Positions 13,859-50,160 of a DNA stretch of 64,000 nucleotides are shown one piece after another. The first letter of the stretch is position 1, and each line of letters begins with the position of its first letter. Origin of the DNA: an uncultured bacterium (GTDB lineage: Bacteria; Desulfobacterota; JADFVX01); NCBI GenBank assembly GCA_965372635.1, contig CBDVDA010000001.1, positions 2,860 through 66,859 of the forward strand, read 5' to 3'. The notes beneath the pieces are model-generated. The model searched no databases. It saw only the letters and a list, made by a program, of their open reading frames with translations, and was not told the DNA's origin. The translations under genes and the position numbers were made by a program.

Positions 13859-14073
13859 GTCCTCCGATTCGAAGTCTTTTTTAAGCGGGCCGACACATCG
13901 GCCTGATTTTTAGATGCTCAAACGCTGCTCAAGGTGCAGTTTTTTCTTACTTTTAAAGTATAGCAGCAGATCGAAGCATTGCAAGTTTGCCGGGCCGATT
14001 TTTTAAAATGGTTTCAGAGGAAATCCTGTGCTATTATTGGCGCGCAGGAGAGGAAAAAACAGGGACGGAAGCC

Positions 14074-15789
14074 ATGAAAGAACAAGAAGAGGACAAGAGG
14101 GAAGGCAGCGAAGCTGCGCCGTCTAACTTTATCCGGCAGGTTATCGACAAAGACCTGGAAACGGGAAAGAATGATGGGCGCGTAGTCACCCGCTTCCCCC
14201 CCGAGCCGAACGGCTACCTCCACATCGGCCACGCCAAATCGATCTGCCTCAACTTCGGCCTTGCAGGCCGCTACGGCGGCGTCTGCCATCTCCGCTTTGA
14301 CGACACCAACCCGACGAAGGAAGAGGCGGAGTACGTCTACGCCATTATTGAGGATGTAAAGTGGCTCGGTTTCGACTGGGAGAATCATCTCTACTACGCC
14401 TCCGATTATTTTGAAAAGATGTACGACTTTGCCGTTACGCTTATAAAAAAGGGGAAGGCTTACGTCTGTAGCTTAAGCGCCGACGAGATGCGGGAATACC
14501 GGGGCACCCTCACCGAACCGGGACGGGAAAGCCCACACCGGAACCGGAGCGTGGAGGAAAACCTCACCCTCTTCAAGCAGATGAGGAAGGGGGAATTCCC
14601 CGACGGCTCGCATGTGCTTCGCGCGAAGATCGACATGGCGTCGCCCAACCTGAATATGCGCGACCCTGTCCTCTACCGCATCCAGAAGGCGAACCACCAC
14701 CGAACGGGCGATACGTGGTGCATCTACCCCATGTACGACTTCGCCCACTGCCTCGAAGACGCCATCGAGGGGATTACCCATTCCATCTGCACCCTCGAAT
14801 TCGAAGACCACCGCCCTCTCTACGACTGGGTACTCGACGAGGTAGGCACGAAGTGCCACCCACAACAGATCGAATTTGCACGGCTGAATTTGAGCTATAC
14901 CGTTATGAGCAAGCGGAAGCTGCTCCAGCTTGTGAATGAAGGGCATGTGAGCGGCTGGGACGACCCCCGCATGCCGACACTGGCGGGCTTAAGAAGGCGG
15001 GGTTTTCCACCCTCTGCGGTGAGGGATTTTTGCGAGCGCATCGGCGTGGCGAAGGCGAACAGCACCGTCGATATCGCTCTGCTGGAGCACTGCGTTCGTG
15101 AGGAGTTGAACGAATCGGCGCCCCGCGCCATGGGGGTTTTGAACCCGCTCAAGGTGATTATCACCAACTACCCGGAAGGAAAGATGGAGGAGATGGAGGT
15201 GCCGAACCACCCGGCCAGTCCGGAGATGGGGACGCGTAAGGTCTCTTTTTCGAAGACGATCTACATTGAGGCCGATGACTTCATGGAGGAACCGGCGAAG
15301 AAATTCTTTCGCCTCGCGCCGGGGAAAGAGGTTCGGCTTCGGTCCGCCTATTTCATCAAGTGCGAAGAGGTGGTAAAGGATGAAACAACGGGGGAGATAA
15401 AAGAGCTTTTATGCACCTACGACCCTGCGTCGCGCGGCGGCGCCTCACCCGACGGCAGGAAGGTGAAGGGGACGCTCCACTGGGTTTCGGTCGACCACTC
15501 AGTCGAGGCGACGGTACGGCTCTACGACCGGCTTTTTCTGACGGAAAATCCGGGAAGTGATAAGAAGACCGATTTCAGGGAAGAGGTCAATCCCGATGCT
15601 CTGGTAACGCTCGCGAATTGTCGCATCGAGCCGGGCCTCAAGGATGCCGCGCCCGGTTCGCGCTTCCAGTTCGAACGGCAGGGCTACTTTTCAGTCGATA
15701 GTGATTCAAAGAGTGACAAGCCGGTTTTTAACCGGATCGTGCCGCTTCGCGATACTTGGGGAAAGGTGAGCGGGGCACCTGCCAGGTAG
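14074..15789 (+). CDS. glnS: Glutaminyl-tRNA synthetase
   Basis: HIGH motif ([14 protein letters not shown]), VMSKR (KMSKS), and an N-terminus [12 protein letters not shown] matching GlnS. Start set at MKEQ (14074), which has an AGGGA RBS. Confidence 0.9.
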
Positions 15790-15804: not shown

Positions 15805-15893
15805 ATTTTTATTGTAGGGGCGGCCCTTGTGTCCGCCCTTTTTGCCAGCATTTAAAGGGCAACCACGAGGGTTTGCCCCTACGCAGACATTCC
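15805..15893. repeat. REP-like composite palindromic element, copy A. GTAGGGGC...GCCC-TTTTT terminator-like hairpin, then GGGCAAC..TTGCCC hairpin, then CTACG.
   Basis: Same family as 17069-17212 and 19147-19365. The ORF-track start at 15827 falls inside this repeat. Confidence 0.7.
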
Positions 15894-15955
15894 ATCAAAT
15901 AAGCGAGGGGGCAACCTATTTCATTCCATTACATCTTATCTCAAAAGATAAAATT

Positions 15956-17026
15956 ATGATTGATGGCAAAAACAGAGACATAAAAAGAAAGGCTTTTTTC
16001 TGCAAAAAAATATTAACCCAGGCGATGTTTGTTACTTTTATTGCCTTACTTCACCTGTCTCTGTCGCCGCTAATAGCTTTTTCATTTGAAACAAATCCTT
16101 CAAAACAAAATCAACCTCTTGAAATAAACCGGGAGGAAAAGAAACAGGGAGTCTTTAAAAGAACCTTTGGTTTGATAGAAACCTTTCAGGAAAATTTTTC
16201 GAAAGGCATAACGTCTACGGGTGATAAAATAGACACATTTTTTGGAGGTGAGAGGGTTATCCAGGAGTCAAACGGGAGTTTTGTTCGGTTGAGACTGGGC
16301 ACTGTTTACGCCAGGGGAGGAGAAGTTTTTTTTGAAAGAGACATAAAGCTGAAAATTGCAATCCCGAAGACTAAGGACAGACTTAAGCTGATGATAGGAG
16401 ATGAACCTGAAGATGAAAACAGGGAGTTTAAAAACTTATCCGACACTTTGGATTCATCTACGGTAAAGGAAGAATCTGTTGGCCTTGGGTACATTCTTAA
16501 GGCTAAAAAAGCTTTGAATATAAGCGTCAGTGCCGGGGCAAGATATCATAACGGGGTAGACTACTATTCAAAGGTGAGGAGCAGAAAATCTTTTTATCCT
16601 GGAAAGTGGGAACTCAGGATATCAGAAATACCATTTTGGACACGGTTCAGAGGATACGGGGCAACAACGGGAATCGATTTTGAGCGGAAGCTGGGTGAAA
16701 ACCTGTTTTTCAGGGCTTCCAGCAGCGCTACCTGGCATGACGATACGGAGGCCTACGAGCTTGCTCAAAACCTTACTCTGTTTCAGCAGTTAAGCAACCG
16801 GAACATGATGGCTTACAACGTCGGCGCCTTCGGGGGAAGAAGCGGCGGCGTGACTTACGTCACGGAATATGCCGCTTCGATTATTTTCAGGAGAAACATC
16901 TATAAGAACTGGCTTTTTGGGGAAATTCAGCCAAGGGCTCTGTTCCAGAAGAGTGATGGCTTTGATCTTTACCCCTCCATAACGGCAAGACTGGAAGTGG
17001 TTTTCGGAAAACCATCAGGGAAATAA
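15956..17026 (+). CDS. Hypothetical secreted beta-rich protein (possible outer-membrane beta-barrel), low GC
   Basis: Start moved downstream of the REP element to MIDGKNRD or to the signal-peptide-like MFVTFIALLHLSLSPLIAFS. Alternating hydrophobic pattern and AT-rich composition. Flanked by REP-like repeats on both sides. Confidence 0.55.
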   Translation: MIDGKNRDIKRKAFFCKKILTQAMFVTFIALLHLSLSPLIAFSFETNPSKQNQPLEINREEKKQGVFKRTFGLIETFQENFSKGITSTGDKIDTFFGGERVIQESNGSFVRLRLGTVYARGGEVFFERDIKLKIAIPKTKDRLKLMIGDEPEDENREFKNLSDTLDSSTVKEESVGLGYILKAKKALNISVSAGARYHNGVDYYSKVRSRKSFYPGKWELRISEIPFWTRFRGYGATTGIDFERKLGENLFFRASSSATWHDDTEAYELAQNLTLFQQLSNRNMMAYNVGAFGGRSGGVTYVTEYAASIIFRRNIYKNWLFGEIQPRALFQKSDGFDLYPSITARLEVVFGKPSGK

Positions 17027-17068
17027 TCTGTCGAACGGTTCGATAGCCAGCCCGACGGATCAACAAAG

Positions 17069-17212
17069 ATTTATTGTAGGGGCGCACCCATGTGTGCGCC
17101 CTTTTTTGCCAGTATTTGGGCAGACACGCGGGTCTGCCCCTACGCAAGATTTTTTGTGTAGAGGCGGCCCTTTTCGATACTTAACAGGGCAACCACAAGG
17201 GATTGCCCCTAC
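17069..17212. repeat. REP-like palindromic elements, copy B (about 1.5-2 units) between convergent genes
   Basis: GTAGGGGCGCACCCATGTGTGCGCCCTTTTTTGCCAGTATTTGGGCAGACACGCGGGTCTGCCCCTACG plus a second partial unit. The first hairpin followed by T6 looks like a bidirectional terminator. Confidence 0.7.
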
Positions 17213-17228
17213 ACCTGCTGGAGCATCC

Positions 17229-18545
17229 CTATAGAAAGAAACTGAAAAACCCCGCATAAACCAGACTCACCACAATCAGGCTGACCAGCATTGTGGGAAG
17301 CCCGATTCTAAGCCACTGCATCGGGGTAATCCGCGCATCAGGCATACCGCATTCTTCTGATTCTGTTACCGCAATAATATTGGCCGTTGCGCCGATATGG
17401 GTGCCGTTCCCACCTACACCGACGCCTATGGCAAGCGCCCACCAGAGCGGCGTTATATTTACGCCCTGGCTTTCCAGACCGACGATAATCGGTATCATGG
17501 TTACTGTGAAAGGGATGTTGTCTATGACGGCGCTAAGCAGCGCCGACGTCCAGATAATAAAAAGGGATGTGGCAAGCAGCATCCCCGGTTGTCCCGCCAT
17601 AAGGGCCACTTTTTTTCCTATCAGGTTAAGGAGTCCCGAACCTTCAACTCCGCCTACCATGACGAAGAGGCCTGCAAAGAAAAAAAGCACCGACCAGTTT
17701 ACCTCTCCAAACATACTGTCCGGTTTCGGCCTTAACAGGATCAGAGCCAGTGAAAGTCCTATAAAGGTAACAAAGGCGGGGTAGAGGTGCAGCTTATGGT
17801 GTATAAAGAAAAGAAGCACTATGAGGCCTAGAGAAAGGAGCGCCCTAAACAGGGCGGACGGGTCTTTTATGGCCTTGCTTTCATCCAGGTCTATTGACCG
17901 ATCAGTTTTTACAGCGAGTTCCTTTCGAAACATGAAAAGAATGAGGCCTATCGTCGTCAGCCAGAGGAGCAGCATAGGAGGCGCCATGTGTATCAAAAAG
18001 GGGGTAAAATCTATGCCTCCTGCGCTGCCGATCATGAGGTTTGGCGGGTCTCCAACCAGTGTGGCTGCACCGCCGATGTTGGAAAGCATCGCCTCTGCCA
18101 ACAGGTAGGGCATGGGATTAAGATTCAGGATTCGGGTTATGAGGACTGTAAGGGGAGCGAATATTATTATGGTAGTCACATTATCAATCACCATGCTTAT
18201 CAAGCTGACGGCGAGACAGAGATAAACAAGCAGTAATCTGCTGTTCCCTTTTGCCAGCCTGGCAATGCGTATGGCAGCGTATTCGAAGGCCCCCGTTGGA
18301 CGCAACATGGATACAACCATCATCATCCCCGTCAGGAGCAGCAGCGTATTGGCGTCTATCGCCCTGATAGCCGCCTCCTGGGAGTAAAAACCGGCTTTCA
18401 TTCCAACAATAATCATGACTACAGAACCTATAATGGCAGCGCTTGTCCGGTGGATGATTTCGCTGAAGATCACAATATAGGAGACAAGAAGTATGGCTAC
18501 GGCCAGGAGCATGTTGCTTGTGAGGGCAGGCTGGAGGGTTTCCAT
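17229..18545 (-). CDS. ArsB/NhaD-superfamily ion transporter (SLC13/citrate-transporter-like permease)
   Basis: About 12 TM helices and an IDNVTTIIIFAP-type motif. 438 aa. Confidence 0.75.
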   Translation of the reverse strand: METLQPALTSNMLLAVAILLVSYIVIFSEIIHRTSAAIIGSVVMIIVGMKAGFYSQEAAIRAIDANTLLLLTGMMMVVSMLRPTGAFEYAAIRIARLAKGNSRLLLVYLCLAVSLISMVIDNVTTIIIFAPLTVLITRILNLNPMPYLLAEAMLSNIGGAATLVGDPPNLMIGSAGGIDFTPFLIHMAPPMLLLWLTTIGLILFMFRKELAVKTDRSIDLDESKAIKDPSALFRALLSLGLIVLLFFIHHKLHLYPAFVTFIGLSLALILLRPKPDSMFGEVNWSVLFFFAGLFVMVGGVEGSGLLNLIGKKVALMAGQPGMLLATSLFIIWTSALLSAVIDNIPFTVTMIPIIVGLESQGVNITPLWWALAIGVGVGGNGTHIGATANIIAVTESEECGMPDARITPMQWLRIGLPTMLVSLIVVSLVYAGFFSFFL

Positions 18546-18548
18546 TGG

Positions 18549-19001
18549 TCAGAGTTCCCTGTTTTTAAGCATAAGACTGGCGATGCCCATGCGGGTGACT
18601 ATCCCTTCATAAACGCCTTCGTCTATAAGAAAGACATAGCCGGAATTATACTTTTCCATGATAGAGAGTGCCTTGACTAGGGGAGATGAGGCGCTTACGG
18701 TGGCGATGTTTTCGAGTACGAAGGATTCGACAGGCATATCGAGTAATTTTTTAACCTCAATTTTCGAGGTGGAAAGATGCCAGATATCATCGCCGAGAAG
18801 ATGGGCGGCCTTGACCATATAGCCGGGCGTAGCTGAAACCTTGAATGCATGGCGCATGGAGACCCGCCCTACAACCTTGTTGTTTTCATCGCAAAAGGGT
18901 ATGCCGGGTACGTTCTGTTTTACGCACTCTTCAAAGACCTCACCTATGGTCATGCCGGTCTTTGCCACAGCTGTTGGGATGACAATATCGAGCAGTTCCA
19001 T
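18549..19001 (-). CDS. CBS-domain pair protein
   Basis: 150 aa with two CBS-like modules. Its stop abuts the transporter start, so it is likely an operon regulatory subunit. Confidence 0.7.
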   Translation of the reverse strand: MELLDIVIPTAVAKTGMTIGEVFEECVKQNVPGIPFCDENNKVVGRVSMRHAFKVSATPGYMVKAAHLLGDDIWHLSTSKIEVKKLLDMPVESFVLENIATVSASSPLVKALSIMEKYNSGYVFLIDEGVYEGIVTRMGIASLMLKNREL

Positions 19002-19146
19002 TCCTTCTCCTTTCTCATTAAACGATATAGATTAATTCTACTAGAGAATGTGCAGATAAGCAAAAAAGGAGAAGAGAGGGGATGGAGGAGGATATGTAGA
19101 GGCTTGGCCTGCCAAGCCCTCAACGTAGATGCCATCAGACAATCAT

Positions 19147-19365
19147 GGGCAAGGCAGGCCATTGCCCCTACGAGTTTATCCGGTTAATATCTCGTTTGTT
19201 TTGTAGGGGCGTCACCCATGTGTGCGCCCATCTTTGCAATATTTCAAGGGCAGATACACGGGTCTGCCCCTACGAGTTCATCCGGTTAACAATACGTTTA
19301 TTTTATTGTAGGGGCGGCCCTTGTGGCCGCCTTTTTCGGTACCTGTCAGGGCAACCACTGTAGCA
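19147..19365. repeat. Tandem REP-like palindromic elements, copy C (about 2.5 units, period about 105 nt)
   Basis: Repeated ...CCCCTACGAGTT(T/C)ATCCGGTTAA...TTGTAGGGGCG..CCC...GGGCA....TGCCCCTAC. The ORF-track peptides in this region are translations of the repeat. Confidence 0.7.
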
Positions 19366-19373
19366 AAAAATGT

Positions 19374-19402
19374 TTGCAAAGGATGATTTCGGGGTATAGA
19401 AT
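19374..19402 (+). promoter_or_regulatory. Strong sigma70-like promoter (TTGCAA-N17-TAGAAT)
   Basis: -35 TTGCAA at 19374-19379, 17-nt spacer, -10 TAGAAT at 19397-19402. About 50 nt upstream of a strong terminator. Confidence 0.5.
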
Positions 19403-19455: not shown

Positions 19456-19492
19456 GCCCGCACCGGCAAAACGGTGGCGGGCTTTTTTGTTT
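19456..19492 (+). terminator. Rho-independent terminator (GCCCGCACCG-GCAAAA-CGGTGGCGGGC then TTTTTTGTTTTT)
   Basis: Perfect GC-rich stem of 10-11 bp followed by a T-run. No annotated CDS lies upstream on this strand. Confidence 0.65.
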
Positions 19493-19549
19493 TTATGTTG
19501 ATTCAGATTTGTAATCTGAATCAGAAAGTTTCAGGTTCAAGTTGTAAAC

Positions 19550-20392
19550 TTGAACCAACGAAGAGAGCAGGTCAAATTGGATAACAAGATTCCAGTCAAT
19601 TCACTCGACTACAGCAGCATTCATGCTTGGGGGGAGTTCAAAAGATATTTAGTGACAGAAAACAGGTTTGTCCTTAACAAACAACAGCAGCTATTTGTCA
19701 GTAATGTAATAAAGGCAGTTCAGAATCGAACCACTTGTTTGAAACAGGGCGAAATATGGTATAGGGCAAGACGTTGTTTTGAAGATTATTCCGGCAGCCA
19801 CCCCAAAGTTGAGGGGAATAAAAAAATATATGGGAGATTCCCTGCAAAGAAAGAAGAGATGGACGCTCCTCCTATAAATTCTGCGACCGATGGACGAGCA
19901 AACCCCAGGCAGTTTCCAATGCTATACCTAGCTAAAAAAGAAGAAACTGCAATGACTGAAACTCGTCCTTTCCTGGGTGAGCTAATTACCTTGGCACCAT
20001 TCAAATTAGATTGTGATCTTAAGGTTGTTGATCTAGTATCTACTCAGTTCAATGGGAAAAATGATGATATTTGTCAAATGGAACAAAGAGGCGAAATTAC
20101 AAGTGTAGAAGTAGAAAATTACATATGGGAAATGATAGGGCATGATTTTTCCATACCTACCGATCCAAGTGACTCGGATGGCAAGTATGTACCCACCCAA
20201 TATTTAGCAGGGGTATTTAAAAACGCTGGTTTTGACGGTATTATGTACTCAAGTGCGTTAAAAAAGGGTGGTATCAATTTAGTTCTTTTCGATCCTTGCG
20301 CTGCAAACTCTCAAGTTGGGAAAATATTCTGTACGAGTGCTATTGAATACAATTTTGTTGGATCTGGGCCACAAAAAGAATATCGAAGTTAA
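19550..20392 (+). CDS. RES-domain protein (toxin-like, putative NAD+-targeting RES fold) with N-terminal extension, in a low-GC segment
   Basis: WYRARR (Arg), GRANPRQFPMLYLAKKEETAMTE (Glu region) and GIMYSSALKKGGINLVLF (Ser region) fit the R-E-S motif order. About 40% GC against about 58% in the flanks. No Xre-type partner is evident. Confidence 0.65.
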   Translation: MNQRREQVKLDNKIPVNSLDYSSIHAWGEFKRYLVTENRFVLNKQQQLFVSNVIKAVQNRTTCLKQGEIWYRARRCFEDYSGSHPKVEGNKKIYGRFPAKKEEMDAPPINSATDGRANPRQFPMLYLAKKEETAMTETRPFLGELITLAPFKLDCDLKVVDLVSTQFNGKNDDICQMEQRGEITSVEVENYIWEMIGHDFSIPTDPSDSDGKYVPTQYLAGVFKNAGFDGIMYSSALKKGGINLVLFDPCAANSQVGKIFCTSAIEYNFVGSGPQKEYRS

Positions 20393-20411
20393 CCAAGAAT
20401 AAGTTTGGATT

Positions 20412-20437
20412 GTCGGGTTACGCTTCGCTAACCCGAC
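20412..20437. terminator. Perfect 9-bp inverted repeat hairpin between convergent genes (GTCGGGTTA-cgcttcgc-TAACCCGAC)
   Basis: Seen directly in the sequence. No T-run follows, so it may act as an RNA stability or termination element. Confidence 0.4.
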
Positions 20438-20821
20438 CTACGCTAGGAACTTATTAACGCCTTCCACCAACTCCTTGTGGTTGAGCGGTTTTACGAGATA
20501 ATCGTCGGCCCCCGCCGCCTTTGCCAGTTCGATAAGCTTTTTATCCCCCATGGCGGAAAGCATAACGATGGGTATGTCCTTCAGCTTTTCAATCTCCCTG
20601 ATCCGCTTGCAGACCTCAATGCCGTCCACGTCCGGCATGGCGAGGTCGAGGAGAATGAGGTTCGGCACCTCTTTCTTGGCGAGGTAGACCCCCTCCGTAC
20701 CGTCTTCCGCTTCTATCGTTTCGAAATCCTCCGTTTTCAGGATTTCGGAGGCGAACTTCCGGTTCATCTCGTTATCATCGATAATCAGTATCTTCTTCAA
20801 CTTTAATCCTCTTTCGTCCAC
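20438..20821 (-). CDS. Stand-alone CheY-like response regulator receiver protein
   Basis: ILIIDD...LLDLAMPDVDG...MLSA...K motifs of a REC domain. 127 aa with no output domain. Confidence 0.85.
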   Translation of the reverse strand: MDERGLKLKKILIIDDNEMNRKFASEILKTEDFETIEAEDGTEGVYLAKKEVPNLILLDLAMPDVDGIEVCKRIREIEKLKDIPIVMLSAMGDKKLIELAKAAGADDYLVKPLNHKELVEGVNKFLA

Positions 20822-35769: not shown

Positions 35770-36891
35770 ATGATGAAACTTTTGATTTCGAAAGCGCAAA
35801 TATTGCTTCTTGTTTTGGTGTGCTTTGCTTGCAACGCCGAGGCCGCACCCAAAGAAAAGCTTCGTTTTCCCGACCTTCACCGGGCATCGAATATGGTTAC
35901 GGGCGGGTGCGAATCATGCCACGCGGGGAGCAAGATGAACCGTGCCGTTAAGGAGACCTGCCTCCAGTGTCACGGGTCCATCGGCGACCTTAAGGGCGCC
36001 GAAAAGAAAAAACTGCTCAACCCTTTCTACCGGGGAGGACGGCAAATCAGGAAGATTGACATGAGAAGCCTGCTTGAAAAAGAATACAGGCATCCTCTCG
36101 GCGAGGAAGGAAACTGGCACAGTGCTCACGAGGAACTTCCGGAACGTGTGATGGATGCGCCCCGGCATGTGGAGTGCGTCGATTGTCACAATGCGCATTA
36201 TCTGAAAACTGCCAACAAACTGGCCGGTTTAAGAGGCGTCAGCAAGACGGGCATCTATGGCGTTCGGGCACGTTATGAGTATGAAATCTGTTTCAATTGT
36301 CATTCCGACAGCTTTAATCTTCCCGTCTGGCAAACAAACAAAAGATTGGAATTCGATGAAAACAACCCTTCCTACCATCCTGTCGTAGCGGAAGGGCAAA
36401 GCGGGATTGTTCCAAGCCTGAAAACCCCCTATAAGGAGACCTACGAGGAACCGGGCGATATTTCAATAATCAAATGCACCGATTGTCACGGAAACGATGA
36501 TGACCGGGGACCACAGGGGCCCCATGCTTCGATTTATCCTTTTATTTTGAAAAAGAAATATTCCATGCAGGATGGCCTCGATGAACGACCGAAAGAGTAC
36601 GATCTTTGCTATAGCTGCCACAAGAGAAGCAGTATCCTCGGCAACATTTCTTTTCGTTGGCATTCTTTACATATTCAGGGTGATATTATCAAGGGGGTAA
36701 AGGGAACGAGCTGCTTTACCTGCCATGACGCACATGGCAGCAGGGAGTATACCCACCTCATAAAATTTAATGAAGAAGTTGTGTTTATAAATACTTCTTC
36801 ATTGGAACTGAAATTTGTGGATAAAGGAGAATTTACCGGAGAATGTTATTTGAATTGCCATGGCGTTAACCATAGTCCGAAGGGTTACTAA
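35770..36891 (+). CDS. Multiheme c-type cytochrome (7 canonical CXXCH plus one CX3CH)
   Basis: Signal peptide. CESCH, CLQCH, CVDCH, CFNCH, CTDCH, CYSCH, CFTCH, CYLNCH. Confidence 0.8.
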   Translation: MMKLLISKAQILLLVLVCFACNAEAAPKEKLRFPDLHRASNMVTGGCESCHAGSKMNRAVKETCLQCHGSIGDLKGAEKKKLLNPFYRGGRQIRKIDMRSLLEKEYRHPLGEEGNWHSAHEELPERVMDAPRHVECVDCHNAHYLKTANKLAGLRGVSKTGIYGVRARYEYEICFNCHSDSFNLPVWQTNKRLEFDENNPSYHPVVAEGQSGIVPSLKTPYKETYEEPGDISIIKCTDCHGNDDDRGPQGPHASIYPFILKKKYSMQDGLDERPKEYDLCYSCHKRSSILGNISFRWHSLHIQGDIIKGVKGTSCFTCHDAHGSREYTHLIKFNEEVVFINTSSLELKFVDKGEFTGECYLNCHGVNHSPKGY

Positions 36892-37388
36892 TGCAGCCTA
36901 TAACAAGGCAGGGTATTTTGACTTTGATGGTATGTTCAGTTATTTTTTTTGGTTGCTCCGGAGGAGACCATAAATTCGGAAATGTTCATCGAGAGAGCAG
37001 TCTCTCTCCCGGAACGGATGGACTAAGAGAAAAGATAAATCCGCATCGTGGAAAACATTGCCTGAAATGTCATGTCACAGATGGAAATGAATTGTTTGAC
37101 CTGAGAAAAAAGAAAGGGCGTCAGGATTTTTCACCAGAAACTAACTTTCTCAAGGCAAACTTAAATAAATTATGCGCTTCCTGTCATGATAAGAAAAAAG
37201 GCGACCACCCGGTGGGTGCCGCTCCGGGAATAAACAGGCTCGATCTTCCACTGGATGAAAAAGGTAAAATAAACTGCGCTGCAACCTGTCACGATGTACA
37301 TATAAGCAATGAAAATATTTCAGGGGTAAAGAAAGGCTTGCTCCGGGCGCCCGCAGAAAAGTTATGTTTATCATGTCATGATGTTTGA
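36891..37388 (+). CDS. Small multiheme c-type cytochrome (3 CXXCH plus one CX3CH)
   Basis: CLKCH, CASCH, CAATCH, CLSCH. Signal peptide with a possible lipobox (FFGCS). Confidence 0.75.
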   Translation: MQPITRQGILTLMVCSVIFFGCSGGDHKFGNVHRESSLSPGTDGLREKINPHRGKHCLKCHVTDGNELFDLRKKKGRQDFSPETNFLKANLNKLCASCHDKKKGDHPVGAAPGINRLDLPLDEKGKINCAATCHDVHISNENISGVKKGLLRAPAEKLCLSCHDV

Positions 37389-37430
37389 TGTTTTATATTT
37401 ATTATGTTGGAACTATAAGGATGGTGTTTT

Positions 37431-38642
37431 ATGCCGGTGTTCAGATGTAAGGTGGGAGATGAAAGCGGAAAACTCGATGAGAAGGAAATAGAGGCAAGCG
37501 ATAGCAAACAGTTGCGGGAAAGGCTTGAGCAGGAAGGGTTATATGTTTATGAAATAAAGCAAAAGGGCACTTTTCAATTCGCCGTACCGAGTTTTTCGGG
37601 GCTCAAAAAAATCAGTACCGACGAATTTCTTGTCTTCAACCAGCAATTAATGGCTTTGCTTAAAGCCGGTCTGCCCCTGCTTTCATCCCTCGAAACGCTA
37701 GCCAGCCAGGAAGAAACCCCCCACTTTCAAAAAATACTAACTTCCGTTGCTAAAGAGGTTAAAGAAGGGGCTCCTTTTTCAAGTGCCGTTGAAGACTATC
37801 CCAGGGTTTTTTCAAAACTTTATGTTTCTTCACTCCGTGCGGGGGAAAAAAGCGGAGATCTCGTTTTAAATATCTCGAGATACATCGCTTACACAAAAAG
37901 GGTGGAAGAGCTAAAAAAAAAGGTCATTACAGCATCCGTCTATCCATTAATTCTTCTTACCGTTGCAACCTTTGTCATCCTTTTTCTTCTCCTCTATGTG
38001 GTGCCGTCATTCAGCCAGGTTTTTCTTGATGCAGGTACCTCTCTTCCTACGCCGACCCGTATTCTTATTGCCTTTACGGGGTTGGTAAAAAACAATGTAA
38101 TCTTTCTCTCAATACTGTTTATGGCGCTTTATCCTGTGTTTATGTTTGCCAGAAAAAATCAAAACCTTCGCCGGAAGATGGACAAGTTGAAATTGAATAT
38201 TCCCTGGGTCGGGAAAATCATTCATCGTTATGCGGTAGCGAAATTTTGCAGGACCCTTTCAACGATTCTTAAAAGTGGAGATCCCCTTGTTTCCGCTATT
38301 CCCCTGGCAGCAGGCACCCTGGAAAACAGTTATATGGAGGAGAGTGTTGTGGACGCCTCTAAGCGTGTTCGGGAGGGGGTCGGCCTGTCTCAGGCAATGG
38401 CAGACGCGAAATTGATGCCGGCCATGGCGCTGAAGATGATCAACGTCGGTGAATCGAGCGGCTCACTGGAAGAGATGTTTGACAACGTTGCCGATCTTTT
38501 TGAAGAGGAGGTGGATCGGAAATTAAATATTCTCACGTCAACCATCGAGCCCCTGCTTATGCTCAGCATGGGATTGATAGTTGCATTTATTGTTGTAGCC
38601 ATGTATCTTCCTATATTCAAACTTGCCGAGACGGTTAGATAG
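37431..38642 (+). CDS. gspF: Type II secretion / type IV pilus platform protein (GspF/PilC family)
   Basis: 403 aa, with the duplicated GspF cytoplasmic domain and 3 TM layout. Confidence 0.8.
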   Translation: MPVFRCKVGDESGKLDEKEIEASDSKQLRERLEQEGLYVYEIKQKGTFQFAVPSFSGLKKISTDEFLVFNQQLMALLKAGLPLLSSLETLASQEETPHFQKILTSVAKEVKEGAPFSSAVEDYPRVFSKLYVSSLRAGEKSGDLVLNISRYIAYTKRVEELKKKVITASVYPLILLTVATFVILFLLLYVVPSFSQVFLDAGTSLPTPTRILIAFTGLVKNNVIFLSILFMALYPVFMFARKNQNLRRKMDKLKLNIPWVGKIIHRYAVAKFCRTLSTILKSGDPLVSAIPLAAGTLENSYMEESVVDASKRVREGVGLSQAMADAKLMPAMALKMINVGESSGSLEEMFDNVADLFEEEVDRKLNILTSTIEPLLMLSMGLIVAFIVVAMYLPIFKLAETVR

Positions 38643-38653
38643 CAGAGTAGATA

Positions 38654-40366
38654 ATGGCAGAGAGAAAAAAAATAGGTGAAATTCTGGTTGAAATGGGATT
38701 TCTGTCGGATGAGCAACGCCGGGAAGTCCTTTCTCAGGAAATTACGGATGGGAAAAGATTCGGAGAGAGATGTATCGAAGGAGAGCTTCTTGATGATGAA
38801 CAACTCGCCAGAGCTCTCGCAAGGCAAAGTGGGAACGAATTTATCGACTTGTCTGACTTTGAACCTTCTGAAGAGCTTGTAGACGCAGTTCCTCTCGAAC
38901 TTATTCATCGCTATCTTTTCGTTCCTTACCAAAAGGAGGGAAAGAGGCTAACCATTGCCGTTTCCGACCCTACTGACGTTTTGTTAATTGATGAGTTGGA
39001 ACTTCTCCTCGATTTGACCATTGTTGCCGGGGTTTCACCGTCCCAGGCGATTGCGAAAGCGATTAAGGTCTTTGAACGTTCGGGAAGGCTTGTCAAGGAT
39101 GTATCCGCCGGGATGGAGTTGCAGTTGGTTAAAGAGACTGACGACGGCGATGAAGTCCTCTCCATGGAGAAAATATCGGAGGAGATGAGCCCTGTTGTCA
39201 AGCTCGTCGATTCGACAATTCTCGATGCATTAAGCAAGCGAGCTAGTGACATTCATATTGAGAGCACTCGCAAAGGGCTGGAAATCAAATACCGGATAGA
39301 TGGCGTTCTTTACAGCGCTGCCGTCCCTCTCGATACCCAGTTTCAATCTCCCATCATTTCGAGGATTAAGGTAATGTCCGAACTGGACATCTCGGAAAAA
39401 CGGATTCCTCAGGATGGCCGTTTCAAGCTGAGAATCGGAGGGAAGGCGATTGATTTCAGGGTCTCCATCATGCCGAGTATTCACGGTGAAGATGCCGTTA
39501 TCAGGATTCTGGACAAAGAGTCGATCGGTGCTGAAATTCAAAAGCTGAGCCTCGAATCTGTCGGATTTCACGAGGATGAAATTGTTCGATTCCGTAAAAT
39601 GATTCGGGAACCCTACGGTATGGTGCTTGTGACGGGGCCGACGGGAAGCGGAAAAACGACGACTCTTTATGCGGCCCTGACGGAGATCAACAGCGTTGAG
39701 GAAAAAATCATTACCATTGAAGACCCTGTCGAATATAATCTTGACGGCATCGTACAGATACCGGTTAATGAAAAAAAAGGCCTTACCTTTGCAAAGGGCC
39801 TCCGGTCGATTTTACGTCATGACCCGGATAAGATTATGGTAGGAGAGATAAGGGATGTGGAAACTGCGCAAATAGCGATCCAGTCCGCCCTGACGGGCCA
39901 TCTGGTCTTTACTACTGTTCATGCCAACAACGCCTTTGACGTTATCGGACGCTTCCTGCATATGAACATGGAGCCCTATAATTTCGTATCGTCCCTGAAT
40001 TGTATCCTGGCTCAAAGACTGGTTAGAAAGCTCTGCGAAAAGTGCAAGCAGGAAGTCAAACTATCACGGGAAGAGATGGAAGAATCCCACTTCGACTACG
40101 AAAAATATAAAGATCATACCTTTTTTGATGCAAAAGGGTGCGGTGACTGTAATTATACAGGCTACAGGGGGAGGTCGGCAATCGTTGAACTGCTCGACCT
40201 TACGGAGGAAATTCGGGAACTGATTCTGGAAAAAGCCTCAACGGCAAAATTGAAAGCGGCGGCTGCCAAGTCAGGCACCACTTTTTTAAGGGGCGCCGCC
40301 GTCAGAAAAGTGTTGAGTGGCGAGACGACTCTGAAAGAAATAAATCGCGTCACCTTTGTTGACTGA
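38654..40366 (+). CDS. gspE: Type II secretion / type IV pilus assembly ATPase (GspE/PilB family) with an MshEN-like N-terminal domain
   Basis: Walker A GPTGSGKTTTLYAAL and tetracysteine CEKCKQ...CGDCNYTGYRGR. The N-terminus has two RxGE(I/L)LV..G.(L/I)...QL..AL..Q-type motifs (KIGEILVEMGFLSDEQRREVLSQ, RFGERCIEGELLDDEQLARALARQ), as in c-di-GMP-binding MshEN domains. Confidence 0.85.
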   Translation: MAERKKIGEILVEMGFLSDEQRREVLSQEITDGKRFGERCIEGELLDDEQLARALARQSGNEFIDLSDFEPSEELVDAVPLELIHRYLFVPYQKEGKRLTIAVSDPTDVLLIDELELLLDLTIVAGVSPSQAIAKAIKVFERSGRLVKDVSAGMELQLVKETDDGDEVLSMEKISEEMSPVVKLVDSTILDALSKRASDIHIESTRKGLEIKYRIDGVLYSAAVPLDTQFQSPIISRIKVMSELDISEKRIPQDGRFKLRIGGKAIDFRVSIMPSIHGEDAVIRILDKESIGAEIQKLSLESVGFHEDEIVRFRKMIREPYGMVLVTGPTGSGKTTTLYAALTEINSVEEKIITIEDPVEYNLDGIVQIPVNEKKGLTFAKGLRSILRHDPDKIMVGEIRDVETAQIAIQSALTGHLVFTTVHANNAFDVIGRFLHMNMEPYNFVSSLNCILAQRLVRKLCEKCKQEVKLSREEMEESHFDYEKYKDHTFFDAKGCGDCNYTGYRGRSAIVELLDLTEEIRELILEKASTAKLKAAAAKSGTTFLRGAAVRKVLSGETTLKEINRVTFVD

Positions 40367-40377
40367 AGATAATATCC

Positions 40378-41268
40378 ATGTTCTTTAACCGTACTCACAA
40401 AACTATCGACATCACATCCGATTCTGTACGTTTCGTGGAAATTGAAGGTTCCGGATCCATGCCGCGACTCATTCATGCCGCTACAGATGACCTTCCCGAC
40501 GGACTTGTTGTCCCCTCCTTTGCCAAATCAAATATTAGCGACCGGGAATTGCTGAAGGAAAAAATCTCCGCGCTTATTCCGGATAAAAAAAGAGGTGGAG
40601 ACATTGCGCTTTGCCTCCCTGACTCTCTCGTGAAAATCACGTCTCTCAGCTTTGAGGATTTGCCGGCCAAAAAAGACGAAGCGACAAAATTGATTCTCTG
40701 GCGCTTAAAAAAAACAGTGCCTCTCCCAACGGAACTCATAAAAATCGATTATGCAATCCTTTCGCAGGAAGAGGCCGGGGTACAAGTACTGACGGCTGCC
40801 GCCTCCAAAACAGTAATCAGGGAGTATGAAGATGTTTTGCGGGAGCTCGGTTTTCGACCCCGTCTGGTGGATATAGCCACCCTGAGCGCCCTTTTTCTTT
40901 ACAAAAAAACGATTGATGATAATTCACTCTTTATCAACTTTAAAGATAACATCATGAGCTTTGCCTTTCTGGTCGAAGGCAAAGTAGAATTTTTCCGGAG
41001 TAAAGAAATGGACTCTACGCCTGCTACTGTTGAGAAGGAATTTGCGTCTACTTATCGGTACTATCAAGCAAATTTTCGGGAACAGGGCGTCGATAATATT
41101 TGTGTCCATTTGGCCGGTGAAAATTCAGATGAGATTCTGAGCGCTTTAAAGAACAGTTTTGAAGGGGAAATTGCAGTTCTCCGGTTATTGGATTTTGCAT
41201 CCTGCCCTGCATCTTTAACAACCGATGAAAACTACTCGTCGGCAATCGGCCTTGCTCTCACGCTTTAA
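40378..41268 (+). CDS. PilM-like actin-fold assembly protein (GspL cytoplasmic-domain analogue)
   Basis: 296 aa. Sits in the pilM position ahead of single-TM PilN/PilO-like genes. Confidence 0.6.
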   Translation: MFFNRTHKTIDITSDSVRFVEIEGSGSMPRLIHAATDDLPDGLVVPSFAKSNISDRELLKEKISALIPDKKRGGDIALCLPDSLVKITSLSFEDLPAKKDEATKLILWRLKKTVPLPTELIKIDYAILSQEEAGVQVLTAAASKTVIREYEDVLRELGFRPRLVDIATLSALFLYKKTIDDNSLFINFKDNIMSFAFLVEGKVEFFRSKEMDSTPATVEKEFASTYRYYQANFREQGVDNICVHLAGENSDEILSALKNSFEGEIAVLRLLDFASCPASLTTDENYSSAIGLALTL

Positions 41269-41302
41269 TGTTCTACTTGAATTTTTAACATAAATATTTG
41301 GA

Positions 41303-41869
41303 ATGATTTCTTTTAACCTGGCCACATACGAATATACAGACAAGAGGGTAGCCCTCCTGATAGCGGTTTTTATTTCTTGCACCTTGGTTTTATTTGCCGG
41401 CTACAATTACATAGTTTACGAAAAATCAAAGGTGCAATCTGATCGTGCCCTGAAAGAGGTAAAAAAAATACAAAAAGATATCTCTCTTATTAAAAAACAA
41501 ATCGAGGAAAGCAAAAAAGGGAAAGACAGCGCCATCGGAGGACGTTATGAAGAGAAGCTTTCGGATAAGATACTCTGGCTAAATGAAATTATAGGAAGAA
41601 AAGCATTTTCCTGGAGTCAATTGTTGTATTCTCTGGAGAAGGCGTCCCCTCCTCGTATCGCAATTAAAACAATAAGACCAAATTTTTCCGGAAAAAAGAT
41701 TAGAATCATCGGCCAAGCGAAAGATGTGGCTGCTATTACAACCTTTGTAGATAGTCTTCAGGGGACTAAATATATTACGAAAAGTTTTCTCTTGAAAGAG
41801 AATATTGTCATTGTAGAAAAAAAATATGAAGCCGTTGATTTTGAAATTGAATGTGAAGGAAATTTTTGA
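41303..41869 (+). CDS. PilN-like bitopic inner-membrane protein
   Basis: N-terminal TM (LLIAVFISCTLVLFAGYNYIVY) followed by a coiled-coil. 188 aa. Confidence 0.55.
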   Translation: MISFNLATYEYTDKRVALLIAVFISCTLVLFAGYNYIVYEKSKVQSDRALKEVKKIQKDISLIKKQIEESKKGKDSAIGGRYEEKLSDKILWLNEIIGRKAFSWSQLLYSLEKASPPRIAIKTIRPNFSGKKIRIIGQAKDVAAITTFVDSLQGTKYITKSFLLKENIVIVEKKYEAVDFEIECEGNF

Positions 41870-42429
41870 GAATGTTACAGTCGGCACAAAAATATTTTAA
41901 TGAAAACAGGGGAGGATACAGCACAGCGCTATTACTTCTTCTTGCCAATATAATTTTTTATTTTGCCATTGTTGCACCCAACTCGACGAGAATAGAACAG
42001 TCAAAGCTGGAATATTTTAACCTCAGAAAATCGCACGCGAAAATAGAAAACGAACTTCTGGAAACGAAAGCGCGTATAATCAATATCGGCGCTATGGAAA
42101 CCGATATAAAGCAATTTCTGGGAGAACTGCCCACACCCTCGGCCATGACCGGACTCGGGCGGGCGATTCACAAGCTAGCGAAAAAAAACAGGTTGGAAAT
42201 GAGATCGGTCAAGTATTCACTCCCTCAAAAGAAGAAGGAGGACATTCTTGTCTATGCCGTTTCACTCCCTGTAACCGGCAGCTATAAACAGGTCAGGCGT
42301 TTCATCTACCACCTTGAGAAAATGCCTTATCTTATGACCATAGACAACCTCAATCTGTCTGCCAGTAAAGGCAATAAAGTTTCTTTGAACCTGAATATTT
42401 CCTTTTATTTCAAGGCGGCAAAAGGATGA
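41866..42429 (+). CDS. PilO/GspM-like bitopic inner-membrane protein
   Basis: TM (ALLLLLANIIFYFAIVAP), then coiled-coil and a ferredoxin-like C-terminus. Overlaps the previous stop. Confidence 0.55.
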   Translation: MRMLQSAQKYFNENRGGYSTALLLLLANIIFYFAIVAPNSTRIEQSKLEYFNLRKSHAKIENELLETKARIINIGAMETDIKQFLGELPTPSAMTGLGRAIHKLAKKNRLEMRSVKYSLPQKKKEDILVYAVSLPVTGSYKQVRRFIYHLEKMPYLMTIDNLNLSASKGNKVSLNLNISFYFKAAKG

Positions 42430-43214
42430 AAAAGGAACCGGTTATTCTTGCGGCACTTTTGATCATTTTAGTTGCAGTTTTTATGAGCAATATACAGGGC
42501 TCGAAAGAAAGACGGATTGGAGAACTTACATTCAAAACGGGCACGCAAACTTTGGAAAGCGAAAATATAAAAAAAAGTGAGGGCGAAGGTTCCCTCCGCA
42601 TCGATAAGAAAAATTTTCCACCCAAACGAGCGTCTTTTAAACTTGGGAATCAAAATATATTTCGACCGCTTCTTTATGTGACGCGGTCGGCGCCTGCCCC
42701 GGCAATTACACAATCCGTGCCCCCTATCATGGTATCAACCCCTAATCTCACAGTTTTTGTAGGAATAGACGCCGAGGTTCCCGTAACAAATGCACAGGGA
42801 ACTCTAAGTGTTGTTTTCAATCCCGACGGAATAGGCGCAGCCAGCGGCACATCATCTCCCCTCACTTTTTCCTGTCTTGTAACGGGTCGTACCGTGGCGA
42901 CTATATCCGATGGAAATAGTTCGGTTACTCTTAATCTGGACTGCGACCTCAGGCCTCCGGAAAAGAAACTGGCCAGCTTTATCTTTCTTGGTTTTTTGGA
43001 GTCGGAGAAGGAAAAGACGATCTTTTTGTCGAAGGATGGAGAGATATTTGTTGTCAAGAGAGGGGATACCCTCGTGAAAAAGAGTGCTACTATTCCGCAG
43101 GATTATGTGGTAAAAATAATAACCGATGAAAAAGTAGTCATTTCATCGTCTGACGGGTCTGATTTAATGGAAATCAGCCTTATTGAAAATGAGCCTCTTC
43201 TCAGGAACAAATAG
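42426..43214 (+). CDS. PilP/GspC-like periplasmic secretin-interacting protein
   Basis: N-terminal TM/signal. C-terminal beta-domain with a SFIFLGFL...IFVVKRGDTLV...YVVKII pattern reminiscent of PilP. Confidence 0.5.
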   Translation: MKKEPVILAALLIILVAVFMSNIQGSKERRIGELTFKTGTQTLESENIKKSEGEGSLRIDKKNFPPKRASFKLGNQNIFRPLLYVTRSAPAPAITQSVPPIMVSTPNLTVFVGIDAEVPVTNAQGTLSVVFNPDGIGAASGTSSPLTFSCLVTGRTVATISDGNSSVTLNLDCDLRPPEKKLASFIFLGFLESEKEKTIFLSKDGEIFVVKRGDTLVKKSATIPQDYVVKIITDEKVVISSSDGSDLMEISLIENEPLLRNK

Positions 43215-43230
43215 GAAGGAGATATTTCAG

Positions 43231-45573: not shown

Positions 45574-45587
45574 AGATAGGGCCAAAA

Positions 45588-46067
45588 ATGGTCTGTCGTA
45601 AGGGAAAAGGGGTCACGTTTATTGAGCTTTTGATCGTTCTTACAATACTTTCTCTTCTTGCCTCAGTTGTTTTACCCCTCGGCCAGATTAGCAAAAAAAG
45701 GGCGAAAGAATATGAGTTGAAGAGCCGCCTTAGAACCATCCGATCTGCCATCGATGCCTATCAGAAAGTCTATGATGAAAAGAGGATAATGAATGTAATC
45801 GGGCGCTCGGGATATCCTGAGACATTGCTGGAACTGGTTGAAGGGATGGAAGATGTAAGAGACCCGGAAGGGAAGATGATCTACTTTTTGAGACGGCTGC
45901 CGCGTGACCCGATGAATAACAATGAATTCCTTGCCCCTGAAGAGACATGGGAAACGAGGGCCTATGAAGGAGAACCCGATGATTTTTCTGGTGGCGACGA
46001 TGTTTTTGATATTCGTTCAATGAGTTATGATATTGCACTGGACGGTACTGAGTACAAGGAGTGGTAA
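45588..46067 (+). CDS. GspG-like pseudopilin (prepilin leader, Glu5, LPRDP motif)
   Basis: MVCRKGKG|VTFIELLIVLTILSLLASVV, later RLPRDPMNN. 160 aa. Confidence 0.7.
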   Translation: MVCRKGKGVTFIELLIVLTILSLLASVVLPLGQISKKRAKEYELKSRLRTIRSAIDAYQKVYDEKRIMNVIGRSGYPETLLELVEGMEDVRDPEGKMIYFLRRLPRDPMNNNEFLAPEETWETRAYEGEPDDFSGGDDVFDIRSMSYDIALDGTEYKEW

Positions 46068-46070
46068 CCG

Positions 46071-46466
46071 GTGGCGAAACTAAAAAAGAAGTCAGGGGAA
46101 GAGAAGGGGTTCACCCTCATAGAGCTACTGATCGTAATGAGCATCGTTGCCATCCTGTTGACAATTGCACAGCCCATGTACAGGGAATCAACGATCAAGG
46201 CGAGGGAAACCGTTTTAATGGAAAACCTCTTTACCCTACGGGATGTTATCGACCAGTTTTACGTCGATAAAAGCCGCTATCCTGACTCTCTAGAGGAACT
46301 GACCGACCTCGGTTATATAAGAACACTTCCCAAAGACCCCTTTACCCGCTCTTCCGAAAGCTGGCAATTAATCCCCCCCTCTGAAGGTTATGAAGGCGGT
46401 GTCTATGATGTACACAGCGGCAGTGATTTGGTTGCACTTAACGGCACCCCTTATAATGAGTGGTAA
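46071..46466 (+). CDS. gspG: Major pseudopilin GspG
   Basis: GTG start. KG|FTLIELLIVMSIVAILLTIAQPMY and TLPKDPF motif. 131 aa. Confidence 0.8.
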   Translation: MAKLKKKSGEEKGFTLIELLIVMSIVAILLTIAQPMYRESTIKARETVLMENLFTLRDVIDQFYVDKSRYPDSLEELTDLGYIRTLPKDPFTRSSESWQLIPPSEGYEGGVYDVHSGSDLVALNGTPYNEW

Positions 46467-50004: not shown

Positions 50005-50046
50005 CGACACATATTGCTCTTTTTGCGACACATATTGCTCTTTTTG
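50005..50046 (+). promoter_or_regulatory. Perfect 21-bp tandem direct repeat (CGACACATATTGCTCTTTTTG x2) upstream of the cytochrome genes. Candidate regulator binding site.
   Basis: Exact duplication read directly in the sequence, 115 nt upstream of the 50161 ATG and 77 nt downstream of the sigma54 regulator gene. A sigma70-like TTGCAA-N17-TATATT lies at 50057-50085. Confidence 0.45.
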
Positions 50047-50160
50047 CTTGAAGTTGTTGCAATTTATTTCGTAATATATATATTATGTGAGAGTCAGGGG
50101 TCTACTTTATCACCTATAGATAATTTCAATAATTCCAAATGAATGTGAGGAGTCATTATT

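Follow-up and report, generated by a model that had tools for sequence, protein, structure and literature searches.

Repetitive extragenic palindromic (REP) sequences of the GTAG superfamily form head-to-head dimers 20-100 bp apart. They have compensatory stem subfamilies, occur in clusters, and lie mostly after genes (Di Nocera et al. 2013, PMC3733652). REP-associated tyrosine transposases (RAYTs), also named TnpA(REP), are divided into subclasses, and subclass 2.4 is scattered over many phyla. REPs of this subclass have a stem foot of three G-C pairs, and REP insertions that keep the reading frame lie between the HuH motif and the Y motif of its transposases (Quentin et al. 2018, BMC Genomics 19:475, PMC6006769). 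An excerpt of Table S1 of the same paper (PMC6006769) contains 105 GTAGGGGC REPs, including the 26-nt GTAGGGGCGCCCCTACGTGGGCGCCC, and also 26-nt GTAGGGGC units of equal layout from Haliscomenobacter. Binding and cleavage of REP single-stranded DNA (ssDNA) by a RAYT have been established only for the E. coli TnpA(REP) (cited in PMC6006769). Here, we analyzed a 64-kb stretch of DNA from an uncultured bacterium of the Desulfobacterota (assembly GCA_965372635.1, contig CBDVDA010000001.1), called the window below, which contains a family of palindromic repeats at 15.8-19.4 kb. These elements are very likely REPs of the GTAG superfamily, arranged as head-to-head dimers (REP doublets forming hairpins, REPINs) and, at 19.1-19.4 kb, as an array resembling bacterial interspersed mosaic elements (BIMEs). 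Their type is GTAGGGGC...GCCC, which is found together with TnpA(REP)/RAYT subclass 2.4. The class of GTAG-tagged REPs has reportedly also been attributed to Nunvar, in 2010.

REP units and dimers of the window

Twelve REP-type hairpins were found in three neighbouring intergenic regions (15814-15882, 17076-17212, and 19096-19358). They form six inverted pairs, numbered d1 to d6 from left to right (Table 1). A REP module consists of a 5' GTAG and a G+C-rich hairpin with the layout GGGC-N3-4-[CCnnGT(G)]-N3-4-GCCC. At the stem foot, a C-G pair comes after three G-C pairs. The GTAG was followed by a stem in 11 of the 12 units, and the exception was the truncated right arm of d6. All copies were intergenic, 24-27 nt long, and 62-76% in GC content. 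Their stems were of four types: GGC/GCC, GCAC/GTGC, AAC/GTT, and AGAC/GTCT. In every pair the GTAG ends faced outward, and the two inverted units of a dimer were separated by 16-25 nt. The elements thus have the features of GTAG-tagged REPs, namely GT[AG]G at the foot of a stem-loop, a short G+C-rich extragenic palindrome that is repeated, and compensatory subfamilies.

The exact octamer GTAGGGGC occurred nine times in the window, all at 15814-19315. The expected number was 1.2, and nine copies were reached in none of 100 shuffles. A covariance model, run with filters off, gave nine full-length matches, all at 15814-19332 (E<=2e-5), and no match below E=0.1 in the remaining 60 kb. The model was built from 88 distinct family members; five of the nine window copies were in the training alignment and four were not.

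Folding was analyzed for single units and for dimers. As ssDNA, single REPs formed hairpins of -6 to -10 kcal/mol in which the GTAG was unpaired. As RNA, the complete dimers d1, d2, d4, and d5 each folded into one long hairpin (-38 to -43 kcal/mol, z -4.6 to -6.0), and none of 200 shuffles folded as well. The energies were -42.9 kcal/mol for d1 (z -6.0), -40.5 for d2 (z -5.4), -39.8 for d4 (z -4.7), and -37.9 for d5 (z -4.6). The fold of d3 was weak (z -1.7). The long hairpin was better than two local hairpins by 5-16 kcal/mol. Six inverted dimers, long-hairpin folding in the four intact ones, and an array of regular period at 19096-19358 are the features of REPINs and BIMEs.

The dimers were copied as whole units, because linkers are common to d1, d2, and d5 (TTTTTGCCAGYATTT or a decayed version) and to d3 and d6 (TTTTCGRTAC...). 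Local amplification took place through tandem duplication, and deletions later eroded d3 and d6. In the tandem array at 19.1-19.4 kb, the period is 102-105 nt and the spacers are 85% identical. The d5 and d2 dimers have the identical stem pair, a GCAC-type arm with an AGAC arm. d6 is 94% identical to the d1 region at 15807-15842, and the d3 segment 17163-17196 is 82% identical to the d6 segment 19325-19358. The clustering of the copies within the window is the sole slightly unusual feature of these elements.

An earlier note on this DNA had described a REP-like composite palindromic family with at least six units around 15.8-19.4 kb. The description holds, in that the REP anatomy is present and six inverted doublets were confirmed; the left arm of d4 had been overlooked. 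What had been called a composite is a pair of REPs placed head to head (REPIN/BIME). The reported tandem array with a period of about 105 nt was found as well, and the outer arms can indeed pair as an alternative to the local stem, as the energies above indicate. A terminator hairpin plus a second hairpin had been proposed as two modules, which proved wrong: one kind of REP is present twice, in opposite orientations. Three sequence rules given for every unit apply to part of them. The head GTAGGGGC begins four of the six left arms, and the remaining two read GTAGAGGC. A clean T5-6 follows the stem in d1, d2, and d6 (3/6), whereas d3 has TTTT and d5 has ATCTTT. GCCAG(C/T)ATTT is present in d1 and d2 only, and d5 shows a degenerate GCAATATTT.

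The family and its transposase in other genomes

IMG/VR was scanned with the pattern GTAGGGGCNNNNCCNNGTNNNNGCCC, which was found in at least 120 stretches. Among the matches listed, the unconstrained NNNN quartets were perfectly complementary in 110 of 167, compared with about 1/256 by chance. In addition, 185,579 species genomes were scanned with the full dimer and a TTTT tail as the query. The full dimer was found in 90 genome stretches, and the record titles span about a dozen phyla. They include Geobacteraceae, Desulfobulbaceae/Electrothrix, and several 'delta proteobacterium' metagenome-assembled genomes (MAGs) on the delta-proteobacterial side. Gammaproteobacterial titles were Methylobacter, Thiothrix, Sedimenticola, and Moraxellaceae. 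Rufibacter and Saprospiraceae represented the Bacteroidota, and Brocadiales, Phycisphaerae, and Pirellulales were of the Planctomycetota type. Further titles were Anaerolineae (Chloroflexota), Nitrospirota, Acidobacteriota, Ignavibacteria, Omnitrophota, Uhrbacteria (Patescibacteria), Glassbacteria, and Tectomicrobia. In Rufibacter hautae the family was dispersed over seven 8-kb blocks on three contigs. The near-identical 26-nt REP layout in about a dozen labelled phyla shows that the REP/RAYT lineage has travelled widely, a point already made by Quentin et al. 2018.

The stems of 88 distinct 26-nt units were analyzed for covariation at the four inner pairs. Paired cells made up 93.9%, compared with 80.2% after shuffling, and a slid-register control gave 29-52%. 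Changes on both sides of a pair were seen in 118 cells, compared with 42 +/- 6 in shuffles, and none of 500 shuffles reached this number. This pattern of substitutions indicates that the inner stem is maintained through compensatory changes. The GGG...CCC stem foot was invariant in the aligned 26-nt units, the search pattern itself having required GGG...CCC. Two different stem subtypes were joined in 49 of 74 dimers, and the GCAC+AGAC pairing of d2 and d5 recurred in unrelated MAGs. Linkers were not conserved from genome to genome. In the sample from the genome scan, the genes around the dimers were arranged in tandem in 41 cases, convergently in 19, and divergently in 8.

No match was found in the plasmid collection with an 80-nt dimer as the blastn query. 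A lineage-specific linker pattern gave one match in the metagenome scan, which was not a REP. No relevant paper was found in the full-text literature with exact repeat sequences or REP-derived peptides. As a side observation, the family was common on IMG/VR contigs classed as viral (the at least 120 stretches above), with multi-copy loci (L078, L100) and a RAYT gene on L102. REPs may colonise phages or prophages, or host fragments may have been misclassified as viral.

RAYT genes were sought by screening the fetched loci for HUH and Y motifs, followed by jackhmmer. IS200-like Y1_Tnp open reading frames (ORFs) adjoined or surrounded these REPs at six loci. The hosts were delta-proteobacterial MAGs (L124, L182), Brocadiales (L142), a Thiothrix plasmid (L184), and Anaerolineales (L207), and one locus was an IMG/VR contig (L102). 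Two of the ORFs, those of L124 and L142, were scanned against profile libraries. Both scored above the Pfam Y1_Tnp (PF01797) cut-off. Their best NCBIfam match was 'REP-associated tyrosine transposase', which was better than IS200 and below the model cut-off. At L124 a full REPtron is present: the gene is flanked by dimers on either side, and another dimer follows the HUH motif immediately, in frame within the coding sequence. The in-frame dimers are at 6702-6775 in L124 and at 7463-7524 in L142. A homology search gave about 8,000 relatives, and JGI names many of them 'REP element-mobilizing transposase RayT'. The in-frame position of REP dimers in RAYT genes is not new, having already been described by Quentin et al. 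2018. In some RAYT genes elsewhere the in-frame dimer was multiplied (proteins P0127, P0153, P0194, and P0222).

A subclass-2.4 RAYT is probably present in the lineage of the window, or was so in the past. By analogy with the biochemistry of E. coli TnpA(REP) and with how IS200/IS605 transposases work, such an enzyme, whose gene would lie beyond the window or have been lost, would recognise the hairpin and the GTAG guide on ssDNA. It would then cut and rejoin REP ssDNA and so seed copies in intergenic DNA. The nearness of the dimers to two low-GC genes would be explained most simply by REPs accumulating in permissive intergenic DNA, and gene exchange would not be required.

Some observations weigh against this identification. 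The copies are tightly clustered in the window, whereas REP families of high copy number are more typically dispersed. No RAYT gene was found within the 64-kb window, where the only jackhmmer match was translated REP. A peptide derived from the REP dimer (typically VGAGPRACP...GQPQGVAPT) was present at the HUH-side position, in some cases in multiple copies, in nearly all of 113 parsable top RAYT homologues, a fraction biased upward because the homologues were gathered through 5-residue words in common with the query, which included the REP peptide. The T-run is rare family-wide and not oriented to genes, and terminator activity is read from sequence only.

Flanking genes and other explanations

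The dimers and the genes around them are listed in Table 1. The ORF at 15956-17026 has a hydrophobic N-terminus and no Pfam match. d4, d5, and d6 sit in a divergent intergenic region ahead of the RES gene. The GTAG head of the different-type REP at 20410-20441 supplies the stop codon of the response-regulator gene (TAG at 20438-20440).

Table 1. REP dimers, their parts, and neighbouring genes in the window (positions of the 64-kb stretch)
Feature	Position	Strand	Sequence	Remarks
glnS, glutaminyl-tRNA synthetase	13987-15789	+		normal GC; upstream of d1; 100% identical to P0001
d1 doublet	15814-15882	+		starts 24 nt past glnS stop; 28.5 and 38.9 bits
d1 left REP	15814-15838	+	GTAGGGGCGGCCCTTGTGTCCGCCC	
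d1 linker	15839-15856		TTTTTGCCAGCATTTAAA	
d1 right REP	15857-15882	-	GTAGGGGCAAACCCTCGTGGTTGCCC	
Low-GC ORF, 356 aa	15956-17026	+		GC 42.9%, GC3 0.445; between d1 and d2
d2 doublet	17076-17143	+		starts 49 nt past stop of ORF 15956-17026; 40.5 and 42 bits
d2 left REP	17076-17101	+	GTAGGGGCGCACCCATGTGTGCGCCC	
d2 linker	between 17101 and 17118		TTTTTTGCCAGTATTT	
d2 right REP	17118-17143	-	GTAGGGGCAGACCCGCGTGTCTGCCC	
d3 doublet, decayed	17158-17212	+		head GTAGAGGC; 40 bits
d3 left arm	from 17158		GTAGAGGCGGCCC	about 11 nt of hairpin deleted internally
d3 right REP	17187-17212	-	GTAGGGGCAATCCCTTGTGGTTGCCC	ends 16 nt from stop of minus-strand CitMHS gene
CitMHS/ArsB-type transporter	17229-18545	-		convergent to ORF 15956-17026; d2 and d3 lie between
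CBS-domain protein gene	18549-19001	-		with transporter, between d3 and d4
d4 doublet	19096-19171	+		variant subtype with CCTG/CAGG loop; right arm 23.4 bits
d4 left arm	19096-19121		GTAGAGGCTTGGCCTGCCAAGCCCTC	
d4 right arm	19147-19171	-	GTAGGGGCAATGGCCTGCCTTGCCC	
Array spacers, BIME-like	19172-19202 and 19274-19307			85% identical to each other
d5 doublet	19203-19273	+		27.9 and 37.9 bits
d5 left REP	19203-19229	+		1-nt insertion
d5 linker	between 19229 and 19248		ATCTTTGCAATATTTCAA	
d5 right REP	19248-19273	-	GTAGGGGCAGACCCGTGTATCTGCCC	
d6 doublet	19308-19358	+		right arm truncated after GGGCAACCAC at 19358; 22.2 bits
d6 left REP	19308-19331	+		then T5
RES-domain gene, 271 aa	19577-20392	+		GC 39.6%, GC3 0.342; between d6 and 20410-20441 REP; 100% identical to P0241
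Different-type GTAG-tagged REP	20410-20441	-	GTAGGTCGGGTTAGCGAAGCGTAACCCGAC	between RES and response-regulator genes; DNA hairpin -9.7 kcal/mol
Response-regulator gene	20438-20821	-		convergent to RES gene

Terminator-like sites were seen at 15818-15834 with a T-run to 15843 (d1) and at 17082-17097 with T6 (d2, 17080-17107). The motif of intrinsic terminators, a G+C-rich stem followed by T5-6, is present in d1, d2, and d6. d1 and d2 lie past same-strand stop codons at the distances given in Table 1, and d6 has no upstream same-strand gene. Judged from the motif and its position, d1 and d2 probably serve as 3' stabilisers or as intrinsic terminators of the glnS and ORF 15956-17026 transcripts, and the REP reading predicts transcript ends for these two genes. 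The terminator role looks incidental, because a T-rich tail was present in 19 of 167 REPs (11%, an unbiased sample, among the matches listed) and, in tail-selected dimers, followed a gene on the same strand in 37 of 69, which equals the random expectation for this intergenic mix. A T-run selected family-wide as a terminator was rejected on the same figures. Like intrinsic terminators, d1, d2, and d6 have a G+C stem with T5-6. They differ in that the T-run is part of the copied linker and not a family feature, in the conserved GTAG head with its inverted partner, and in that d6 has no gene to terminate.

The elements might instead be selected cis-regulatory RNAs acting as attenuators or intrinsic terminators. 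Pairing of the outer GTAGGGGC with GCCCCTAC would then compete with the terminator stem, and the likeness to REPs would be secondary. The hairpins with T5-6 directly after two plus-strand genes would suit such RNAs, and so would the two alternative folds, of which the long one is the more stable. G-U pairs also favour the plus-strand transcript of d1 (-42.9 vs -38.4 kcal/mol). Yet d6, which also has the T-run, precedes two divergent genes, and there is no plus-strand gene for it to terminate. The T tail is as infrequent and as randomly oriented as described above, linkers differ between genomes, and units also occur within protein-coding RAYT genes. No Rfam match at the gathering score was found in the window; the sole sub-threshold match, MicX (25.8 bits vs 75), was rejected as chance. 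We regard regulatory RNAs as highly unlikely. Miniature inverted-repeat transposable elements (MITEs), i.e., non-autonomous remnants of DDE-type insertion sequences with GTAGGGGC...GCCCCTAC terminal inverted repeats, would share with the dimers the short length (53-76 bp), inverted ends, multiple copies, and intergenic positions. They would be expected to leave target-site duplications, and none was present at any of the six dimers, with flanks such as TTTTATT/GCAGACA, ATTTATT/GCAAGAT, and TTGTTTT/GAGTTCA. The absence of duplications largely refutes the MITE explanation. Moreover, the 'terminal repeats' are complete hairpins themselves and are also found singly, the arms often differ in stem subtype, and the only transposase associated in other genomes is of the Y1/HUH kind, which leaves MITEs next to no probability. 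Repeats of alternating orientation and spacers that duplicate one another spoke against a CRISPR-like array, which was rejected.

A further explanation starts from the low-GC genes. The dimers would be hot spots of recombination or integration that bound acquired cassettes (ORF 15956-17026 and the RES gene), and in a stronger form a RAYT would move the REP-flanked genes. The claim of the earlier note that the bracketed genes are AT-rich was correct, as the GC3 values (G+C content at third codon positions) of both (Table 1) are below the 0.56-0.73 of neighbouring genes. ORF 15956-17026 lies exactly between d1 and d2 in the same orientation, and the low-GC RES stretch extends from the d6 truncation to the 20410-20441 REP. 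Past glnS, the genes of the nearest relative are entirely different. REPs are also known as targets of some insertion sequences and as sites of rearrangement (Di Nocera 2013, PMC3733652, discussion). On the other side, the closest glutaminyl-tRNA synthetase among 5.8 billion proteins was 77% identical, which is too distant for a presence/absence comparison. Its locus (GCA_029860075.1) has only glnS in common with the window, shows no further synteny, and contains no GTAGGGGC REPs. The closest RES homologue (60% identity; L214, a low-GC contig) has no GTAG REPs around it, and the metagenome contig scan gave no relative of ORF 15956-17026. The normal-GC transporter and CBS genes are bracketed by REPs just as well. 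In other genomes the copies are scattered in the manner of ordinary REPs, and most of them lie between genes in tandem or convergent arrangement. No tRNA or tmRNA genes that could mark an integration site were found in the window.

The largest low-GC block of the window lies at 35.7-46.5 kb (35770-46466, plus strand). It comprises about 11 same-strand genes with a GC content of 36-47% and a GC3 of 0.35-0.55, and this cluster was probably acquired horizontally. No GTAG REPs were found in this block, which argues against a general link between REPs and low GC in this genome. Overall, REP dimers as recombination hot spots around acquired cassettes are unlikely. A more specific proposal is that the dimers are the joints at which the lineage captured low-GC genes. 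This would have occurred by REP-REP recombination, or by RAYT-mediated ssDNA excision and insertion with d1-ORF-d2 as a composite element, and the d6 end at 19358 would be the scar of RES insertion. We consider this quite improbable. REPs that bound mobile cassettes would be new if true, and nothing here shows so.

Several other features were observed around the RES gene. Two similar 23-nt perfect palindromes, GATTCAGATTTGTAATCTGAATC (19500-19522) and GGTTCAAGTTGTAAACTTGAACC (19534-19556), lie just upstream of, and overlap, the possible RES start, and resemble a pair of operator sites. The RES gene has no Xre-type antitoxin gene next to it. A promoter-like TTGCAA-17-TAGAAT is present at 19374-19402 on the plus strand, and a strong hairpin with T6 follows about 60 nt on (19458-19490). 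The segment 19373-19490, which has no Rfam match, could be a short transcript or a leader before the RES gene. Unrelated short tandem repeats were found at 194-264 (36-nt unit, two copies, 86% identity) and 50005-50047 (21-nt unit, two copies, 100% identity). The plus-strand ORFs at 19145-19363 (72 aa, ATG start) and 16983-17231 are translated REP sequence and would be spurious gene calls. REP-derived peptides (e.g., VGA...APT) also gave false protein similarities, seen as weak jackhmmer matches. The REP identification explains a repeat block that otherwise yields spurious ORF calls.

Comparison with known REP systems

The element type is already known, and the window adds an instance of the GTAGGGGC REPs associated with subclass-2.4 RAYTs. 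In common with the REPs of this subclass, the window elements have GTAG at the hairpin foot, three G-C pairs at the base of the stem, the GTAGGGGC head, and a patchy spread over phyla. The flanking of RAYT genes by REPs and the in-frame position inside them are shared in other genomes only. The differences are that the host is an uncultured member of the Desulfobacterota, a placement that the sequence neighbours of its glutaminyl-tRNA synthetase also make probable, that the 64-kb window has no RAYT, and that the exact stem and loop variants of the window are absent from the excerpt of Table S1 (PMC6006769).

The REP/BIME-RayT (YafM) system of E. coli and the GTAG-3 family share GTAG with an imperfect G+C-rich palindrome. 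E. coli BIMEs are further alike in the inverted pairs of two REP subtypes (Y/Z), in the regularly spaced tandem clusters, and in the position after genes with side effects as terminators or mRNA stabilisers. BIMEs bind IHF, gyrase, and Pol I. The stem here is shorter than in E. coli REPs and unbulged, the loop is 6-9 nt, and the sequence is another one. The cognate RAYT of this REP family is of subclass 2.4, whereas that of E. coli is of subclass 2.2.

In Pseudomonas fluorescens SBW25, the replicating unit of the REPIN-RAYT system is reportedly an inverted REP doublet with its linker, able to form one long hairpin, as Bertels and Rainey are said to have described in 2011. The window dimers resemble these REPINs in having common linkers and in folding as long hairpins. 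Unlike in SBW25, two-thirds of the dimers of this family have non-identical arms, and therefore the long hairpin carries an internal loop. The family also spans many phyla, whereas the SBW25 system is vertically inherited within a genus. The ends of IS200/IS605 elements are comparable in that their hairpins, as those of the window would be by analogy, are read as ssDNA by a Y1/HUH enzyme, with a short 5' guide and no target duplication. In contrast to these elements, the window dimers have no transposase gene between their hairpins, and both arms are of one kind instead of being distinct left and right ends.

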